Assembly: GCA_041946735.1 (NCBI GenBank)
Contig: JBHGAY010000011.1
Location: forward strand, 32,001-96,000
Direction of reading: 5' to 3'
DNA from: Candidatus Eiseniibacteriota bacterium
GTDB taxonomy: Bacteria; Eisenbacteria; RBG-16-71-46; CAIMUX01; VGJL01
Length of the DNA: 64,000 nt
The position numbers and the translations under genes are program-made. Shown in pieces: positions 34,128-43,550 of the stretch. A model generated the notes under the pieces. It saw nothing but the letters and a program-made list of their open reading frames with translations. It was not told the DNA's origin and made no database searches. Every line of letters starts with the position of its first letter. Positions within the stretch are counted from its first letter, which is position 1.

Positions 34128-34440
34128 GACTTCCGATGCTGCCACAATTCGGCCGGCCTCGCGCCGCCCTGGTCGATCCGCCTGCCCGGCCGGGTCGGGG
34201 GCGCGACCCTCGCCGCTGGCGCCGGCTCCGACCTTCGCCCGCCTCGGCGGTGTCCGCCTCCGGCTGGTTGACCCGCCTACGGCCGTCCCTTAAGATGGCC
34301 ACGCCGAAATCTTACCCTGAGCGTTCGATCGGGAGTCGAACCCCCGATTCGGGGAACGGTGAATGTAGCTTCGTTCGGGGATGTGGCTGGCAGGGACGAG
34401 TGGGGGGCCCCGCTCGGCCTCCAGCCGAATGAGGTGGACC

Positions 34441-35586
34441 GTGGCTGACACGGAGCGGGTCATCGTCGATCTGCTGCGCAGCTTGCTGTCGCATCCCGGC
34501 GAACGCGACCGCGAACGTTTGGCAGACTCCGCCGTCCTCTACATCCGCGCCTTCACGATGAGCCACCTCCGGCAGCGCCGCTTCGGTTTCGGGGAGAGCT
34601 TCGCCGACGTTGCGACCAGCGCGGCCGGCATCCAGGTGGCGAGGCTTCTGCAGTCCAGCCGCCGGCAGCCGGAGAACGGCGAGGAGCCGCGCGAGGATCT
34701 GGCGAGGCTGAGATCCGCGATGCACAGGCGGCTGATCCAGGAAGCGGCCGCTCCGCGCCTGCCGGCGCGCCGGCGGGCCAGAATCCGCCGCGCCGCGCAG
34801 GCGGTCGCTGCAGGCGCGACGATCCCGGCCGAGCTTCCCGACGACGTCGTCCTGGCCTGCTGGCGATCGATCCTGCGAGGCCTCGCGCATCGCGGGATCA
34901 TCGAGGTCTGGAATCAGGAACACCCGGAGCTCGCGCGACAGCTTCGCGCGCTCAAGCGGATCCTCGCCAAAGGAGAGGGGGTGAGGATTCGCAAAGAGAA
35001 CGCTCGCGGGCAGCTTCTGGTGAGCGACGGCAGCGCGCTTCACCGTCCGTGCATCGACAGAGACGCGCTGCAACGGATGCTGCACCCGATTCCACGCAGC
35101 GTCCCGGATCTCGCCGGTTTGCTCCCCTCGATCCTCGTGCCGTCCGAGATCCACGGGGGCTCGGCGTTCCTGATGGACTTCCTCATCGCATGGGAAGACG
35201 TCCTTCGCCGGGAGGTGCCGCCGGACACCGAGGAGAGCGCGTCGTCCCGCGATGGCGTCCCGATCGAGCGCCTCGCCGGAGAGCTTCCACCGATCCTGCG
35301 CCGCCGCGCGCGCGATCTGCTGCGCGCGGACCAGCGCAAAGGGACGTTCGCCGGCGATGCGGACGACCCCGCGTGCCGCCTGTCCAACGCCTACGTCGAG
35401 ATCTCGGTCGAGATGGTCTCGCGAGATTGCGGAGTGGGCAATCCCGAGTGGTCCCGTCTCTCGCAGAAGAAACTGATCGAGCGCCTTCTCCCGGACGTCG
35501 CGACCGACGGCGTTCTCGCGAGGCACCAGCAGAAGATCGACTACCTCGTTCTGCGCCTGCGCGGGACGATACGGGTCCAGCCATGA
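34441..35586 (+). CDS. Hypothetical protein; candidate highly divergent ECF-sigma-like factor
   Basis: GTG start with GAGGTG RBS; helical, no TM; sigma2-like WRSILRGLAHRGIIEVW and sigma4-like terminal KIDYLVLRLRGTIR; ATGA overlap with the next gene. The ORF is well supported but the function is inferred. Confidence 0.45.
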   Translation: MADTERVIVDLLRSLLSHPGERDRERLADSAVLYIRAFTMSHLRQRRFGFGESFADVATSAAGIQVARLLQSSRRQPENGEEPREDLARLRSAMHRRLIQEAAAPRLPARRRARIRRAAQAVAAGATIPAELPDDVVLACWRSILRGLAHRGIIEVWNQEHPELARQLRALKRILAKGEGVRIRKENARGQLLVSDGSALHRPCIDRDALQRMLHPIPRSVPDLAGLLPSILVPSEIHGGSAFLMDFLIAWEDVLRREVPPDTEESASSRDGVPIERLAGELPPILRRRARDLLRADQRKGTFAGDADDPACRLSNAYVEISVEMVSRDCGVGNPEWSRLSQKKLIERLLPDVATDGVLARHQQKIDYLVLRLRGTIRVQP

Positions 35587-37814
35587 GCCTGGCCGAGCGG
35601 CCGCGCGAGGAGGCCTACGCGATCCGGGAGCTGCACGAGATCGCGGCCGATCTCGACGAGCTTCTCGCCATCGCGCAGCCACCGCTCGTCACCCTCCACG
35701 CGACCCGGCGCTTCCTCGAAGTGCTGGTTCCGTACGGGTCGAACGGCTGGATCGCCTATGGGGAGCGTCCGACGGTCGCGTTGACGAGATCGCTCGAAAC
35801 GCTCCAGCCGCTCGAAGGGATCCCTCTCGAGGATCTGCAGGCGGTCCGCGCGCTGCTGCAGCAGCTCGCCGACCTCGCTCTCCCGCGCGGCGCCGTGTCG
35901 CCGATGTTCGATCTGCCCGCGGCCGCCCTCCGGTCGCTCGCCATCGTCGAGAATGGGATCGAGAGGCTCACCGCCCTGCTTTCCGGGAAGGAGCCCGATC
36001 CTCAGGCAACGGAGGACCGAGCCGCCGTTCTGCTCGTTCCGGTGGCCGTCGGGCTGCGGGCGGCACGCGTGGCCCATCCCCTCTTTGCCGGCATTCGCGC
36101 GGGCCAGATCGTGAGGCTGCGTGTCGAGGCGGAGATGGGGCGGCGGCGCGCCGGGCCCGACCAGCTCCTCCTCGACGGACGGGCGACCGCGGAGACGCGC
36201 GCGGCGTTCTGCGCCGCGCTGTCCCACTTGGGCCAGCTCTCCGTCCCGGGCGCCCCCCGCCTGGAGCGATGCTGGTTCCGCGCCGCCTGGACTCCGGGCG
36301 ACTGCGATCTGGCGGGACGGTCCGCGAGCCTGCCGTTCCTGCTCGCCGCCGCCGCCGCCCGCGCCGCGCTCGCCCCGGGCAGGTCGGCCCGCGAGACGGT
36401 GGCGGGGACCGCCGTCACTTCCGACCTCGACGGCACCCGCAGCGCGCCCGTCTCCGAGGGCTCGCTTGGTCTGAAGGTGGCCGCCTGTTTCCACGCGTCG
36501 GTCCGCCAGCTTCTCGTGCCGTTCGAGCAGCGACAGCAAGCGCAGGAAGCGCTGCGCGCGCTGGAGGCGAAGCACCCGGAACGCCAGCTCCTCGTGCGCG
36601 GCGTGCGGGACGCGCGAGACGCATGGGGAGATCCGGGCGTGATCCGGACGCGCACGCGCACGGCGGCAGAGGCCTGCTCGACCCTCCTGCATCGATTCGC
36701 CGCGAGCCGGACGTTTGCGGTCGTGGTCATTCTCGCGTTCCTCGTGCTCCTGCTGCTGATATTCCTCGCTCTCCGCTGGACGCACTACAACCCGGTCGCG
36801 CTGGACTGGTCGAAGGGCCGGGATGAGCTGCTGGTCAAGAACCAATACGGCTTCACGGTGCTCGCGCTGCCGATCAGGCACCAGCATCCGAACGAGGTTA
36901 GCCTCTTCGGATATTCGCGAGCCCTGGCGGACCTCGACGGAGACGGAGTCAAAGAAGTGATCGCCATCCACGACGGCCGGGAGGAGGCGTTCTCGGCCCT
37001 GAGCATGTTCGACAGGAAGAAGCAGCCGGTCTGGACCAGGTTCTGCAACGACCTTTCACCCGGCATCGAGCGCAAGGTGGATGGCTTGGCGTGGTTCGCT
37101 TTCCTGCCTCTCGAGCTTGGACCGGGGGAACCGGCGAGGCTCGCCTGCCTGCGCCGCTCACGACAGGGCAGTCTCTCGGTTCTGGAGATCGACGACGCGG
37201 CGACCGGGCAGCTCCTGGGGCGCATGAGCAACATCGGGCACATCGAGGCGATCTACGAGACCGATCTCGACCGAGACGGGCGGAAGGATTTGTGGGCGTG
37301 CGGTACGGACAACGTCACGGGCATGGCGCTTCTCGCCGTGCTCGATCCGGCGGCGTTTCGGATCGAGGAAGGCGCCACCCGTGTCTCGGATCTCCTGGGC
37401 TTGACCGATCCTCGGTCGCTCGGCGCCGGAGTCCTCTCGCTGGTGGAGCTGCCCAAGCTCTCCTACTCGCGATCGGAGAGGGCGCAATGCACGACAGTGC
37501 AGATCGGCGATGACGGTGGAGTGATCGCGGGGAGCGCGGACCCGGATGGTAATTGCCTGTTCCATCTGCGGTTCCCCGACCTTCGAGCCCCGGTCCTCGA
37601 TCATGTGCAAATCACCGATGCTGGACGGAGCATCATTCGGTTCCGGGCCGGGAGAGACGTTCCCCTCGCCGAGTTCGCGGCCGAGGAAGCGGCGATGGCG
37701 CAAGCGGCCCGCATTCTCACGCCGGACGGTTGGCGGCCCTGCCCGGGAGGGGAGGCATCGCAGCCGGCCCCGCGGGAATCGGAGATTTCTGAAATACCTG
37801 CCGGTGGCAGGTAG
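35583..37814 (+). CDS. Membrane-anchored Lon_C (S16)-like protease domain, TM helix and extracytoplasmic FG-GAP-like beta-propeller
   Basis: LAGRSAS (Ser247), AVTSDL, LGLKVAA (Lys298), LLVP; TM FAVVVILAFLVLLLLIFLAL (~36714-36773); ADLDGDGVKEV and TDLDRDGRKDL motifs. Confidence 0.68.
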   Translation: MSLAERPREEAYAIRELHEIAADLDELLAIAQPPLVTLHATRRFLEVLVPYGSNGWIAYGERPTVALTRSLETLQPLEGIPLEDLQAVRALLQQLADLALPRGAVSPMFDLPAAALRSLAIVENGIERLTALLSGKEPDPQATEDRAAVLLVPVAVGLRAARVAHPLFAGIRAGQIVRLRVEAEMGRRRAGPDQLLLDGRATAETRAAFCAALSHLGQLSVPGAPRLERCWFRAAWTPGDCDLAGRSASLPFLLAAAAARAALAPGRSARETVAGTAVTSDLDGTRSAPVSEGSLGLKVAACFHASVRQLLVPFEQRQQAQEALRALEAKHPERQLLVRGVRDARDAWGDPGVIRTRTRTAAEACSTLLHRFAASRTFAVVVILAFLVLLLLIFLALRWTHYNPVALDWSKGRDELLVKNQYGFTVLALPIRHQHPNEVSLFGYSRALADLDGDGVKEVIAIHDGREEAFSALSMFDRKKQPVWTRFCNDLSPGIERKVDGLAWFAFLPLELGPGEPARLACLRRSRQGSLSVLEIDDAATGQLLGRMSNIGHIEAIYETDLDRDGRKDLWACGTDNVTGMALLAVLDPAAFRIEEGATRVSDLLGLTDPRSLGAGVLSLVELPKLSYSRSERAQCTTVQIGDDGGVIAGSADPDGNCLFHLRFPDLRAPVLDHVQITDAGRSIIRFRAGRDVPLAEFAAEEAAMAQAARILTPDGWRPCPGGEASQPAPRESEISEIPAGGR

Positions 37815-37892: not shown

Positions 37893-38537
37893 GTGAACCG
37901 TTGCTACAGAGAGAGTTCGATCGAGAGGGTAGCCGGCCGGCTCGCCCCTGGCGGCGATGCGGGCCTCGATCTCCTCGCCCGCTGGGCTGCCGGCGGCCCG
38001 GCTCGCCTGCGGCACGAGCGCGCCGAGTTCGCCGCCCACGTAGCCGCTTGCGCCAGGTGCGGCGGGATCTTCTCGGTCTTCCTCTCGACCGAGCGCTCCC
38101 TTTTGGCCGCCGCCGGGGCTACGAGCCCCGCCCCGCTGAGGCCGCTACCGGTCGTCCTCAGCCTCGCCGCGCCCGCGCAGAGAAGGCGCGGGACCATTCG
38201 TCGAGGGGATGGACTGACGGGGTCGGCGGACGATGCGGCCGTGGAAGCTGCGCGCGACTCGGATCGGCCGTGCTATCAGGTGGCGGCCGATGCGGGGGAC
38301 GCGCAGGACCCGGCAGTCCTGCCCACCATGGCGGAGATCACGCTCACCTCGGAGGACGGGCGCTGGGGCGTCCGGATCAAGCCCGATCCGCAGGGCGAGG
38401 GCGCGATCGCGATCCTCGTGCCGAGGCGGCAGGGAGCCGTCCTCCGATTGGGGGGCGTCGAGCATCTCTTCGATGAAGACGGGATCGCCCACTTGCCGTC
38501 CTCCCCGATCGGCGCCGCGTTTCTCATTCTCTCCTGA
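37893..38537 (+). CDS. Soluble zf-HC2/ZAS anti-sigma-like protein
   Basis: N-terminal Cys4 plus HVAACARC (H49/C53/C56); flexible linker with YQVAAD; small beta-rich C-domain; no TM. Confidence 0.62.
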   Translation: MNRCYRESSIERVAGRLAPGGDAGLDLLARWAAGGPARLRHERAEFAAHVAACARCGGIFSVFLSTERSLLAAAGATSPAPLRPLPVVLSLAAPAQRRRGTIRRGDGLTGSADDAAVEAARDSDRPCYQVAADAGDAQDPAVLPTMAEITLTSEDGRWGVRIKPDPQGEGAIAILVPRRQGAVLRLGGVEHLFDEDGIAHLPSSPIGAAFLILS

Positions 38538-38584: not shown

Positions 38585-38618
38585 AAAGGGACGCCTTTCC
38601 CGAAAGGGACGCCTTTCC
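38585..38618. repeat. 16-bp direct repeat AAAGGGACGCCTTTCC x2, each copy with an internal palindrome
   Basis: Copies at 38585-38600 and 38603-38618; AAAGG-GACG-CCTTT in each. Confidence 0.85.
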
Positions 38619-40349: not shown

Positions 40350-43300
40350 CTACGACGACGCGACGCTTTCCGCCGCCTCTTCCCCCTTCATCCGCAGCCG
40401 CCGCGCCGGATCGGTGATGGCTCCGATCTTCACCGCGAAGCTGCTGCGCGCAGCGATGTCCTCGTCGGTCACGAAGTGGACGTCGAGCAGTCCCTCGGTC
40501 CGGTAGCCGGTGCGGAGATAGTTCAGCTCCGACAGGCAGCGGCTCCATCCGTCCAGCCAGGTCGAAAGCTCGATCCGCTGCCGCTCCGAACCCGCGAAGT
40601 GCAGGACGAGGTCGATGTCGCTCGCAGGCCCGGCGCTCGCGTTCTTCGTGCTCCCGATCAGGTAGAACCCCTTCAGGCCGAACCTCAGCGGATCGGTCTC
40701 GGCCGCGATCTGCTCGGCGAAGCGCAGGCGCCAACGCCAATGCTGCTCGGTGGTGGCGTGGTCCGCGGTGCCGGGGCTCTCCGGCACGCCGACGGCCTCC
40801 TGCGCGGGCATCAACACCCCGACCGCCTCGTCCAGATCGGCGTTCATCAAGACCTTCAGGATCATTCCGCCCGCCGACTGCGGCACGTCGATGACGTGGA
40901 TGACGTCGGAGAGATGCGCGAACTCCGGCAGGAAGTTCGTGAGCAGATTCTCCGACCTGCGGAAGAACGTCTCGTCGAAACGGATTCCGGGATCATCCGG
41001 ATAGAGCGGCAGGTAGCGGATCGACGCCTCGACCAGATCCTGGAAGAAGTGGGTTCCGAAGGAGAGGTCCGGACGGTAGTTCCCCTTCTTGCGCGCAATC
41101 TCGATCAGGACCGCGCAATTGTTGATGTCTGCATAGGTGACATTGACGCCGAGACGGATGTCTCCGCGGCTTCCCCATCGTCCCGGTCCCATCAGGATGA
41201 ACTGCCGCTTCGGGAGCATCTTGTTCAGCCGGCCGACTGCGCGGCCGACCGCGCGCAGCTCGTCCGGATCGGCGATCTCGTTGTACCCTTCCGGATCGAC
41301 ATACACGATGTGCGTGACGTCCGGCACCCGCCCGTTCGACACGTAACGCTTCGCCGAGAAGAGGACGCGATTCTCCGGAATGTCCCGCGGAATCGGCGCC
41401 GGCTGAGTCGCCGCCCCGCTGCTTTGCGGCCGGCACTGGAGCAGAAACAGCTGCTTGCCGTTGGAAGCGAACTCGATGTCGACCGGCGAGCCGATCGCGC
41501 GATGCAGGACCTCGAGGATCGCCTTGACCTGGCGGATGAACGGCGTCTCGCGGATCAGCCCCTCGAACGTCACGACGAGCTTCTCGTTTTGTAGATTCAC
41601 CTGCCGCCCGATCGGCGGATGCACGTGATCGCGCTCGTAGATCGAGACGAGATGGTGGATTCCCGGGACCTCGTCGCCATGGTTGCGAAAGACGTCGACC
41701 GCCTCGATCGTCTCGAACGTCCCTTCTCGGAGATTGAGAACGTCCATCTTCTTCGGGGAGTACTTCGCGATCTCGTCCGGCGTGACGTTGACGCGCAGGC
41801 CGGGCTGGCCGGGCGCGAGCAGGACCGGATAGTCGTCCTTCAGGCGGTCGACGGCGCGGCTGCCGAGCCCCGTCACGAGGCGTACCAGACCATCCTCGCG
41901 TTGGATGCGGCTGGACCAACGGAACTCGTTCCGGCTGAAGGCGACCCCCGAGAAGGCGGGGAAGTAGTAGTCGCCGACGCGGCAGCCGACCACCTCCTGA
42001 ATCAAGATCCCCATCTCCTCGTAGACGTCCAACAGCCCGCGCTCGGCGCGGTACTCGATCGGGTCGGGACCGAAGATCGACGCATACACCTCGGCGATCG
42101 CGTCCATCAACGCGGTCAGGCGCTCGCGCTTCGTCCCCTGGTTCGGAAGGAAGATGCTCTTGTACTTTCCGGAGAAGGCGGCGCCGAAGCGATCCTCGAG
42201 CAAGCTCGAGCTTCGGACGATGAGCGGAGTCTGCTCGAAGTCGTCGAGCACCTGCGACAGGGCGCGCACCATCTGCGGGGAGAAGCGGGAGTTCTTGAAC
42301 ACCTGGACGATGTGCGGGTACTCGTGCCGCACCTCGTCGATCTCGGCGTACTTGTGGTTGTAGATGTCCTCGAGCTCGTTGTAGCGGATGAAGTCGAGAA
42401 TCGAGTCGGACGTCATGTACCACGTCTTCGGCACCCGGATCTCGCCGAGATCCGGCACCGTCGCGGCCGCCTTGCGCAGGATCTGGCTGGCGACGAACAG
42501 GCCGGCCGCCTTCCCCCCGAGCTTCCCGTGACTGGTCGGCGGAAACACCAGGTGCTCCACGATCTCGAAGAAGTCATCGATGTCGAGGAATCGCTTCGCC
42601 ATTTCGACGAACTGCGGCTGTTCGGAGAAGAAGTGGCCGATCAGCGAGACTCGGAGCCCTTTCCGGGCCGCCGGGGAGATCTCGACCGCTTCGGGACCGA
42701 TGTGGTGGTAGCGGCGGATCGCCTCCGCGATCTCGTCGAGTCCGGAATCCGGGTTCCCGATGGTCGTCACGAGAAAACGGGCCTTGTCCTCCTTGATCCA
42801 CGATTGGATGCACGCGAGGATCTCGTCGTTGCTCAGGTACTGTCCCGCGATCCGGAAAGTCTCCTCGGTGATGTCCCGTTCCCATTCGGACCCCAGGCGG
42901 CGATGCGGTCGGTTGTCCTCGACCGCCGCGTCCTCGTCCTCGTCCTGGCCGGACAGATCGTGCAGGATGCTCACCGCTTCCTGCACGCCGATCCAGCCCA
43001 GGTGGTTGATCATCTTCCTCGAGATGCGGATCAGCAGCTCGTTGTCGGTGCGCCGGAGGAAGTCGAGGACGATGCGCCATGGCTCCGCGCGGCTCTCGAG
43101 CGAGCCCCGCGCCTCCTCCAGGTTGCGGAACGCGCTGCGCAGCTTGCGGTGCTCGATGTGGTGGCCGATCCGGTCGGCGATGTTGTCGAGCATCTTCCGC
43201 TCTTCCTGCAGGAACGGCCCTCCGTCGGATCGGACCGTCATCTCCGTGTAGACGACGTCGATGCGCCCGACCTTCTCGCCGTCGACGAGGATCGGCGCGG

Positions 43301-43550
43301 ACTGCACCCAGGGGCTCTCCTGGAAGTTCGGGCAGACGACGACGGTGTCGCGGTAGACGATGCGCGCGCGGCAGAGGCTCGGATACTGGAGGCCTGACGG
43401 GATCGACCGGAGGACGCCGGTCAGCACCTCCTCGAGCGGCACTTCGGTCTGGCTCAGCACTTCGTCCACCCTGTACAGGCAGTCGAGCTCCTTCGCGCGT
43501 TCCTGAAGGACGCGGAGGATCGGATCCATCGGAGTTTCGGGCGCTGTCAC
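40350..43550 (-). CDS. PEP-synthase/PPDK N-terminal (ATP-grasp) domain protein with N-terminal GAF-like region and C-terminal nucleotidyltransferase-like domain
   Basis: LGGKAAGL, IVRSSSLLED, FSGKY, IQEVVG, DIEFA, LLQCRP, SFGTHFF; C-terminal YLIGST...SDIDL. Confidence 0.85.
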   Translation of the reverse strand: MTAPETPMDPILRVLQERAKELDCLYRVDEVLSQTEVPLEEVLTGVLRSIPSGLQYPSLCRARIVYRDTVVVCPNFQESPWVQSAPILVDGEKVGRIDVVYTEMTVRSDGGPFLQEERKMLDNIADRIGHHIEHRKLRSAFRNLEEARGSLESRAEPWRIVLDFLRRTDNELLIRISRKMINHLGWIGVQEAVSILHDLSGQDEDEDAAVEDNRPHRRLGSEWERDITEETFRIAGQYLSNDEILACIQSWIKEDKARFLVTTIGNPDSGLDEIAEAIRRYHHIGPEAVEISPAARKGLRVSLIGHFFSEQPQFVEMAKRFLDIDDFFEIVEHLVFPPTSHGKLGGKAAGLFVASQILRKAAATVPDLGEIRVPKTWYMTSDSILDFIRYNELEDIYNHKYAEIDEVRHEYPHIVQVFKNSRFSPQMVRALSQVLDDFEQTPLIVRSSSLLEDRFGAAFSGKYKSIFLPNQGTKRERLTALMDAIAEVYASIFGPDPIEYRAERGLLDVYEEMGILIQEVVGCRVGDYYFPAFSGVAFSRNEFRWSSRIQREDGLVRLVTGLGSRAVDRLKDDYPVLLAPGQPGLRVNVTPDEIAKYSPKKMDVLNLREGTFETIEAVDVFRNHGDEVPGIHHLVSIYERDHVHPPIGRQVNLQNEKLVVTFEGLIRETPFIRQVKAILEVLHRAIGSPVDIEFASNGKQLFLLQCRPQSSGAATQPAPIPRDIPENRVLFSAKRYVSNGRVPDVTHIVYVDPEGYNEIADPDELRAVGRAVGRLNKMLPKRQFILMGPGRWGSRGDIRLGVNVTYADINNCAVLIEIARKKGNYRPDLSFGTHFFQDLVEASIRYLPLYPDDPGIRFDETFFRRSENLLTNFLPEFAHLSDVIHVIDVPQSAGGMILKVLMNADLDEAVGVLMPAQEAVGVPESPGTADHATTEQHWRWRLRFAEQIAAETDPLRFGLKGFYLIGSTKNASAGPASDIDLVLHFAGSERQRIELSTWLDGWSRCLSELNYLRTGYRTEGLLDVHFVTDEDIAARSSFAVKIGAITDPARRLRMKGEEAAESVASS

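Follow-up and report, generated by a model that had tools for sequence, protein, structure and literature searches.

Cleavage of an anti-sigma factor that exposes a tag for ClpXP is already known for RseA and for the CRISPR-linked CalpT, the latter cut by a Lon-type protease. In the RseA–sigmaE pathway of E. coli (DegS, RseP, then ClpXP), proteolysis relays an extracytoplasmic signal to the inside of the cell: the membrane-spanning RseA is cut by two dedicated proteases, and the C-terminal VAA thereby exposed is read by ClpXP before the sigma factor is released. In the CalpL/CalpT/CalpS (CalpLTS) system, which is activated by cA4 in a type III CRISPR context, the CalpL preprint (bioRxiv 10.1101/2024.05.08.593097) describes a protease composed of an N-domain, a Lon domain and a SAVED domain. 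According to the same text, CCaCalpL cuts CalpT within the unstructured segment 202-LAAA, between A204 and A205; this cleavage alone leaves CalpS unreleased, and a degron is required. The new end, ...LQLAA, serves as that C-degron, an effect abolished by A204D, and the C-terminal fragment of CalpT (DUF2080, CalpT10) docks on the CalpL N-domain. The same CalpL/CalpT/CalpS outline is given in the introduction of PMC11417357. Here we describe a three-gene cassette whose closest known system in function, judged by analogy, is CalpL/CalpT/CalpS. It lies between positions 34429 and 38537, on the forward strand, of a 64,000-nucleotide stretch from a Candidatus Eiseniibacteriota bacterium (assembly GCA_041946735.1, contig JBHGAY010000011.1, positions 32,001 to 96,000; hereafter the window), and comprises gene 1, for a sigma-like protein that we call p401, gene 2, for a membrane protein with a Lon-type protease domain, and gene 3, for a soluble protein with a zinc-ligand motif.

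By analogy, we consider it an evenly balanced possibility that these three genes form one CalpLTS-like sigma-release switch with an extracytoplasmic sensor. In such a switch, the gene 3 product would be the anti-sigma factor, its predicted four-helix, zinc-motif N-domain holding the sigma-like product of gene 1. The gene 2 product, crossing the membrane once, would sense an extracytoplasmic signal through its FG-GAP-like outer domain and place its Lon-type Ser–Lys domain in the cytoplasm, so that a transmembrane sensor would stand where CalpL has its cA4-binding SAVED domain. On activation, the protease would cut an exposed loop of the anti-sigma protein at [YF]x[LVI]AA+[DQ] (the plus sign marks the cut), which in the window protein falls after A132. 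The sigma-binding fragment would then end in ...YQVAA, imitating the ...LALAA ending of the host ssrA tag. By analogy with CalpT and RseA, ClpXP would engage this new end, extract strand 87–92 from the beta domain and unfold the helical one, and the sigma-like protein would be freed.

The cassette has in common with CalpLTS a set of adjacent genes for a Lon-type Ser–Lys protease, a soluble anti-sigma-like protein and a sigma-like factor. In both, the protease consists of an N-domain, a Lon domain and a sensor domain, and the anti-sigma protein of an N-terminal part that binds sigma (or, in the cassette, is predicted to), an unstructured Ala-rich site and a small beta C-domain. The cleavage site LAA+A of CalpT compares with the proposed [LVI]AA+[DQ] of the cassette, and the new C-terminus would be of the LAA type in each, a C-degron as demonstrated for CalpT and as suggested here by analogy. 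The two systems differ in the sensor, which in the cassette combines a transmembrane helix with an FG-GAP-like outer domain (SAVED was unmatched by Pfam), and in setting, as neither a sensor for cA4 activation (by Pfam) nor a type III CRISPR context (among the neighbouring genes scanned) was found for the cassette. They also differ in the anti-sigma N-terminal part, a helical HxxxCxxC four-helix bundle here and MazF-like in CalpT, and in the sigma-like protein, which at 385 residues is invisible to PF04542. MazF-like and DUF2080 families were unmatched in all 34 aligned members of the gene 3 family at E-values up to 1, and no sequence-level homology of the cassette proteins to any Calp protein was found. 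Compared with RseA–sigmaE, the cassette anti-sigma protein is soluble, and the membrane-spanning receiver of the signal would be the protease itself.

A sequence-only reading of this stretch had proposed that V130–A132 of gene 3 form a cryptic ClpXP degron, uncovered when the neighbouring protease cuts after A132, and had named conservation of [LV]AA within an otherwise variable linker as the check. We therefore turned to the gene 3 family. A HMMER search over 1.84 billion cluster representatives yielded 36 proteins at E 0.001 or better, 81–301 residues long (mostly 170–250). The window protein and 33 of these matches, 26–34% identical to it, were aligned as 34 sequences, leaving out P0001, a fragment of the window protein itself, and two short sequences, P0015 and P0030. 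A profile scan of 41 genomes (the host and 40 relatives) located the family at eight places in seven other genomes with E below 1e-4. Homologue searches by word index turned up nothing beyond the proteins of the window themselves or nearly identical partial ones: a 145-residue fragment truncated at a contig end in one search, a 98%-identical partial protein in another and three proteins in a third. Family records that bear names are all hypothetical proteins of Candidatus Eisenbacteria. Eight columns of the alignment are invariant: H49, C53, C56, A132, R161, A173, F193 and P205. Around A132, position 128 is Tyr in 22 and Phe in 9 members; position 130 is Leu in 21, Val in 9, Ile in 2 and Ala in 2; position 131 is Ala in 33 and Asp in one; position 133 is Asp in 24 and Gln in 5; and position 134 is Ser in 14, Thr in 9 and Ala in 7. 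The family pattern is thus [YF]x[LVI]AA[DQ][STA], with YALAA in 5/34 members and FALAA in 2/34. The loop columns that flank it have entropies of 2.8–3.5 bits, and the motif follows H49 at a distance of 54 to 95 residues, depending on the member; nothing else in this loop, variable in both length and sequence, is conserved. The conservation looked for is therefore present.

These data bear directly on the explanation that the VAA arose by chance from the composition of an Ala-rich, high-GC protein and is without function. G+C makes up 68% of the window, and [LVI]AA tripeptides occur four times in the window protein (residues 50, 71, 91 and 130); its VAA taken singly is no more than chance would give, and it is conservation in the family that lifts it above that level. 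Only the tripeptide at 130–132 aligns across the family, among sequences of such low identity and within a near-random loop. With A132 in 34/34 and A131 in 33/34, chance composition was ruled out as the source of the VAA, and we regard an accident as exceedingly improbable.

Judged from sequence, the fragment produced by cutting after A132 would end in ...[YF]x[LVI]AA, an aliphatic-Ala-Ala ending like that of the host tag. The host genome has a single transfer-messenger RNA (tmRNA), whose encoded tag ends in LALAA, and a clpX gene (625.9 bits, above the curated cut-off) with clpP adjacent; the degron-like ending in the sequence-only reading has both a host tag that it resembles and a host protease that could read it. 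Among cassette-carrying relatives, the tmRNA tag is ANTELALAA in 4/5 and ADYQPALAAA in the fifth. The YALAA of five family members equals the ending of the ENYALAA ssrA fragment, the positive control in the CalpT study (bioRxiv 10.1101/2024.05.08.593097). Co-variation between tag ending and motif was also considered and dropped: the genome with the LAAA-ending tag has one AAA+Q cassette and one VAA+D cassette.

The frame of gene 3 looks coding from its codon-position pattern, with a G+C content of 0.77–0.97 at position 3 over most of the open reading frame (ORF) against 0.40–0.70 at position 2. A GGGAG lies 8 nucleotides 5' of the GTG start, and the N-terminus, MNRCYRESSIERVA, agrees with the family consensus MxCxxExxxERAA. 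No transmembrane segment was found in the protein (highest 19-residue Kyte–Doolittle mean 1.57). It is thus soluble, as the sequence-only reading had it, and an RseA-like membrane-spanning anti-sigma factor was ruled out on the same ground. An AlphaFold2 model built on the 34-row alignment (mean confidence, pLDDT, 81.6) has four helices at residues 7–76, a strand at 87–92, a low-confidence segment at 93–148 that holds the motif, and a seven-strand beta domain at 149–213 with pLDDT of 92–97; 10-residue block means fall to 47–57 across residues 101–140. Sequence and model together bear out the parts that had been described, namely Cys4, H49xxxC53xxC56, the linker (here predicted to be disordered), V130–A132 at 38280–38288 and the beta-rich C-domain. 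The VAA had been placed immediately before that domain; the order is right, but 16 residues separate A132 from the first C-domain strand.

The model also revises what a cut would do. Strand 87–92, which includes L91 (conserved in 33/34), probably belongs to the same sheet as the C-domain, because all other modelled strands sit there. If this pairing is right, residues 93–148 would be a loop displayed from the beta domain. As the strand is N-terminal of the motif, a cut at A132 would open the loop and not detach a domain. The earlier notion that cleavage removes a protective C-domain is accordingly probably too simple, and an opened loop fits an unfoldase pulling on a new LAA-type end better than it fits domain removal. 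In structural comparisons of the C-domain, the best rows were generic beta-sandwiches; its match to CalpT10 (8b0u_C; Z 4.9, root-mean-square deviation (rmsd) 2.7, 63 residues aligned) is within the noise range. Foldseek searches of the Protein Data Bank (PDB) returned nothing at E 0.001 or better for the gene 3 and p401 models, and the gene 3 family profile had no matches among PDB sequences.

The Lon-type assignment of gene 2, the protease invoked by the sequence-only reading, held up on closer inspection. A profile of seven homologues, compared with PDB sequences, matched the LonB protease domain of Archaeoglobus fulgidus (E 0.0019; 1z0b_A) in an alignment that pairs both catalytic residues (GrSAs opposite GDSAS and lKveA opposite qKIEA); the next matches, to E. 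coli Lon, M. jannaschii Lon and birnavirus VP4, had E-values of 1–2.6. The Ser and Lys thus lie in GxSAxL and K(V/I)xA contexts as in LonB (MEROPS S16, 1z0b), and S247 and K298 are invariant in 7/7 aligned proteins and, read by eye, in five more (12/12). With respect to the Lon family (S16), the protein has the catalytic Ser–Lys dyad and shows no AAA+ ATPase module: AAA families were unmatched at E up to 5 in seven homologues searched against Pfam, and Pfam Lon_C was unmatched even at E 5. Unlike Lon and LonB, the Lon-type domain of gene 2 is fused to a transmembrane helix and an outer domain. The Atlas model aligned over residues 12–365 with the Lon_C part of Lon proteases at TM-scores of 0.27–0.30, under the tool's threshold.

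Hydropathy analysis of gene 2 gave a 19-residue Kyte–Doolittle maximum of 3.54 at residue 379, in the sole stretch above 1.6. An Arg-rich stretch precedes this helix and an N-terminal signal-like segment is absent; by the positive-inside rule, the N-domain and Lon domain would therefore be cytoplasmic and the last ~340 residues outside. The outer domain has a weak FG-GAP_3 match in Pfam (E 0.0031, below the cut-off), and the first five rows of an Atlas structure search align with FG-GAP-bearing clusters. Atlas look-alikes of gene 2 are ~700–800 residues long with the same architecture (scores 0.97–0.98, clusters of 66–150 members) and are most frequent in Ignavibacteriota. The family of sensor-bearing Lon-type proteases (sensor-Lon) may extend beyond Candidatus Eisenbacteria. 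A literature search that covered subscription journals little turned up no description of a membrane Lon-like protease with an anti-sigma cassette.

The frame of gene 1 is coding by G+C at third codon positions, and the AlphaFold2 model of p401 (13 sequences) has a pLDDT of 86. We compared this model with 48,161 PDB chains by VIA-align, for which a Z below 8 can be chance according to the tool. Among the first 16 rows, 15 were sigma-factor entries, aligned over p401 residues ~4–166 with Z of 6.3–7.8. The best was ShbA (Z 7.8, rmsd 2.7, 93 aligned), followed by SigB (7.4), SigW (7.3), sigmaE region 2 (7.2) and SigC region 2 (7.2, 88/89 aligned); further rows were pro-sigmaK, RpoS, AlgU, SigI6, sigma32, SigA domain 2, R. 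sphaeroides SigE and SigK. Two rows (6dxo_A and 7lq4_A) are sigma/partner complexes for which the listing is silent on which chain is sigma. It is the uniformity of this list, and not single Z values, that carries weight, and by structure comparison the model has the region 2 fold of the sigma-70 family. Towards region 4, p401 aligned as far as its C-terminus with full-length sigma32 (8hkc_E; 160 residues over 5–379) and sigma28 (6pmj_F; 155 over 19–385); taken by themselves, its C-terminal helices fit lambda Q and cyclin-like folds just as well.

Complex prediction gave p401 and gene 3 residues 1–80 an ipSAE of 0.84 (median of 0.87, 0.84 and 0.76), against 0.00 for the best of three control complexes; the mark used for ipSAE is reached by 116/157 solved complexes and 2/215 mismatched pairs. 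Contact agreement among the runs was at least 80%, and partner pLDDT was at least 80. On the gene 3 side, the predicted interface comprises residues 2–12 and 52–74, including C53 and C56; on the p401 side, it comprises helices 37–49 and 139–147 of the sigma-2-like domain and residues 190–208. The sigma-binding role that had been assigned to the N-terminal fragment thus finds a candidate partner in the same cassette, predicted to bind the zinc-motif domain.

Like the ZAS proteins RsrA, ChrR and RslA, the gene 3 family has an invariant HxxxCxxC (H49-VAA-C53-AR-C56 in the window protein) with an upstream Cys/His, and a soluble helical N-domain followed, as in ChrR, by a beta-rich C-domain; the predicted partner of the N-domain is a sigma region-2-like domain, as in ZAS systems. 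At alignment position 4, Cys occurs in 28 and His in 4 of the 34 members, the pattern expected of a fourth metal ligand. The family differs from ZAS in that no canonical ECF sigma gene adjoins gene 3. Searches of the literature on ZAS proteins with a cryptic degron found nothing relevant among the papers listed, and those on DUF2080 turned up only the CalpL preprint.

Several results weigh against a sigma-release switch of this kind. At the sequence level, none of the three cassette proteins is recognised by Pfam or NCBIfam; for p401 this holds in 8 homologues searched against Pfam, the Sigma70_r2 and r4 profiles included, and an hhalign comparison of p401 with 13 ECF sigmas encoded in its own genome fell short of significance (probability 0.25%). 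A PF04542 scan of the host genome gave 23 sites, none in the cassette, the p401 profile had a single match among PDB sequences (E 0.94), and all Atlas rows for p401 that point to Sigma70_r2 fell under the tool's threshold. The structural Z values of p401 are modest, all below 8. The complex prediction was run on shallow alignments of 13 and 34 rows, and its score may partly reflect likeness to solved sigma/anti-sigma complexes. For gene 3, the ZAS label drawn from sequence stands as regards HxxxCxxC, invariant in 34/34, but not as regards Pfam zf-HC2 (PF13490), which matched 0/34 members at cut-off and 1/34 at E 0.13; a PF13490 scan of the host genome gave 5 sites, none at gene 3. In canonical ZAS proteins, the upstream Cys/His ligand is spaced about 23–26 residues from the motif; in the gene 3 family, the first Cys/His precedes the His by 24–52 residues (45 in the window protein), a longer spacing. 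The N-domain matched RslA (3hug_B) with Z 4.0 and PupR (5cam_A) with Z 4.3, scores within the noise and exceeded by unrelated helical rows (Z 5.6). Finally, one family member, P0008, has VDA at the motif, which, by the rule given in bioRxiv 10.1101/2024.05.08.593097 and by analogy with CalpT, should cripple a ClpX degron, and the Ala-rich motif may be a mere cleavage preference.

This last point leads to an account in which the motif is only the recognition and cleavage site of the Lon-type protease, sigma is released without ClpXP, either by the cleavage itself or by further cuts of the same enzyme, and the likeness to ssrA is a by-product of an Ala-rich preference. CalpL also cuts an Ala-rich site, LAA+A, so that Lon-type specificity alone could fix the two Ala residues (bioRxiv 10.1101/2024.05.08.593097). 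The VDA member would be accommodated, and the conservation of Asp/Gln at 133 and Ser/Thr/Ala at 134, past the cut, is unneeded by a pure C-degron. In CalpLTS, however, the same preprint (bioRxiv 10.1101/2024.05.08.593097) has the cut alone failing to free sigma, with the degron needed; going by the gene 3 model, a cut at A132 would open the loop without separating helical and beta domains, and an unfoldase would help; and an aromatic-x-aliphatic-Ala-Ala sequence upstream of the cut is closer to ssrA endings than to a generic Ala-rich site. We consider release by cleavage alone unlikely, though to be taken seriously.

A further possibility, which we hold to be distinctly improbable, dispenses with cleavage. 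Here [YF]x[LVI]AA[DQ] would be a binding motif, for the p401 C-terminal domain, the protease N-domain or RNA polymerase, and control would come from a zinc/thiol switch at C4, H49, C53 and C56. RsrA, itself a soluble ZAS protein, is switched by zinc/thiol chemistry; the gene 3 protein is likewise soluble, its four potential ligands are conserved (H49, C53 and C56 in 34/34, Cys or His at position 4 in 32/34), and conserved short motifs in disordered loops are often docking sites. Such a switch would leave two features unexplained, the constant Lon-type neighbour with its intact Ser–Lys pair and the mimicry of the host degradation tag by the motif, and the predicted sigma interface needs only residues 1–80. 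Taken together, the degron-based reading of gene 3 is partly supported, every part of it that could be tested in silico having come out in its favour; of the readings weighed here it has the best support, and CalpL/CalpT provides a direct experimental precedent.

The order p401, protease, zinc-motif gene was found in 10/10 loci with enough sequence, by tblastn and ORF reading; these are the locus in the window, eight in seven relatives and one on a metagenome contig. In another two loci, truncated where the sequence ends, the first two cassette genes are seen, and the flanking genes vary from locus to locus. In the window, the stop of gene 1 overlaps the ATG of gene 2 (ATGA) and gene 3 starts 78 nucleotides after gene 2. 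The gene 1 profile is present in 11/206 genomes of the phylum, and in 9/121 of good quality. A locus search with a tighter 13-sequence alignment found two loci in genome contigs and one in metagenome contigs. One relative has two complete cassettes. A second relative has, besides its cassette, two incomplete sequences resembling gene 1 (E 1.4e-33 and 1.0e-19), of which one shares a contig with that cassette. Duplication of the system inside one genome thus does occur.

Upstream of the cassette lies a sigma-70-type promoter-like site, the only one between 34100 and 38800 (the mean in shuffles is 0.2). Comparable sites occur in 5/12 cassette upstream regions, against 0–6% of shuffles per region. 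A promoter-like site of this housekeeping type suggests that the cassette may be constitutively expressed and not autoregulated by its own sigma. Just 3' of the gene 3 stop are two perfect copies of AAAGGGACGCCTTTCC, whose starts lie 18 nucleotides apart. Either copy can fold into a small hairpin, and together they are in part a palindrome; they may be a terminator or a protein-binding site. The neighbouring ORFs scanned with Pfam encode Crp, DinB, a metallophosphatase and a PPDK_N protein, and no cas gene was among them. The PPDK_N protein has a pyruvate phosphate dikinase N-terminal (ATP-grasp-type) domain (E 6e-55) and, in its C-terminal region, weak nucleotidyltransferase matches (E 0.011–0.017), an unusual fusion.

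Table 1. Coordinates of the cassette and of associated features (window positions unless a contig is named).
Feature	Position	Strand	Basis or remark
Promoter-like site, sigma-70 type, TTGACC-17-TAAGAT, upstream of cassette	34268..34296	+	sequence scan
Gene 1 (p401), 385-residue sigma-factor-like protein	34429..35586	+	start uncertain: ATG 34381, ATG 34429 or GTG 34441
Gene 2, 743-residue membrane protein: cytoplasmic N-domain, Lon-type domain, transmembrane helix, FG-GAP-like domain	35583..37814	+	
Lon-type proteolytic domain (about residues 190–330)	36150..36570	+	profile match to LonB
Putative catalytic Ser247	36321..36323	+	
Putative catalytic Lys298	36474..36476	+	
Single transmembrane helix (about residues 377–399, FAVVVILAFLVLLLLIFLALRW)	36711..36779	+	Kyte–Doolittle
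C-terminal ~340-residue domain, probably extracytoplasmic, FG-GAP/beta-propeller-like	36780..37811	+	weak FG-GAP_3, Atlas structures
Gene 3, 214-residue soluble zinc-motif anti-sigma-like protein	37893..38537	+	GTG start
Putative zinc ligands Cys4 and H49xxxC53xxC56, in four-helix N-domain (residues 7–76)	37902..38060	+	conservation
Cys4 codon	37902..37904	+	
H49xxxC53xxC56	38037..38060	+	
H49 codon	38037..38039	+	
C53 codon	38049..38051	+	
C56 codon	38058..38060	+	
Strand 87–92	38151..38168	+	AlphaFold2 model
Variable linker/loop, predicted disordered (residues 93–148)	38169..38336	+	low pLDDT, column entropy
Conserved motif Y128-Q-V-A-A-D-A134, proposed cut after A132 (38288/38289)	38274..38294	+	family alignment
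V130 A131 A132 D133, encoded by GTG GCG GCC GAT	38280..38291	+	
Beta-rich C-domain (residues 149–214)	38337..38534	+	pLDDT 92–97, invariant R161, A173, F193, P205
Paired copies of AAAGGGACGCCTTTCC	38585..38618	+	
1066-residue ORF, PPDK_N protein	40350..43550	-	Pfam
tmRNA, single in host genome, tag ANTELALAA	contig C12, 41839..42180	-	ARAGORN

The cassette points to a mechanism of a known class, with new component families and a new transmembrane wiring. Three families have been missed by current profile libraries, namely the sigma-like factor, the zinc anti-sigma protein and the sensor-Lon protease, and since p401 is recognisable as sigma-like only in its predicted structure, the number of sigma factors in uncultured phyla may be underestimated. 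A precise experimental handle is offered by the conserved [YF]x[LVI]AA+[DQ] motif. We propose tentatively, and with somewhat less than even confidence, that the cassette represents an unrecognised sensor-Lon class, in which an outer beta-propeller-like domain would signal to a cytoplasmic Lon-type domain, a single cut in a soluble zinc anti-sigma protein would expose a built-in ssrA-like ending, and ClpXP would then free a very divergent sigma-70-family factor. If this is true, such cassettes would be a non-CRISPR, housekeeping counterpart of CalpLTS, and they suggest that the Lon-type version of anti-sigma cleavage reaches beyond antiviral signalling. They would also provide a route from envelope to transcription without a membrane-spanning anti-sigma factor and without a site-1/site-2 protease pair, and a protease that itself spans the membrane, paired with a soluble anti-sigma protein, would be simpler wiring than a two-protease cascade.

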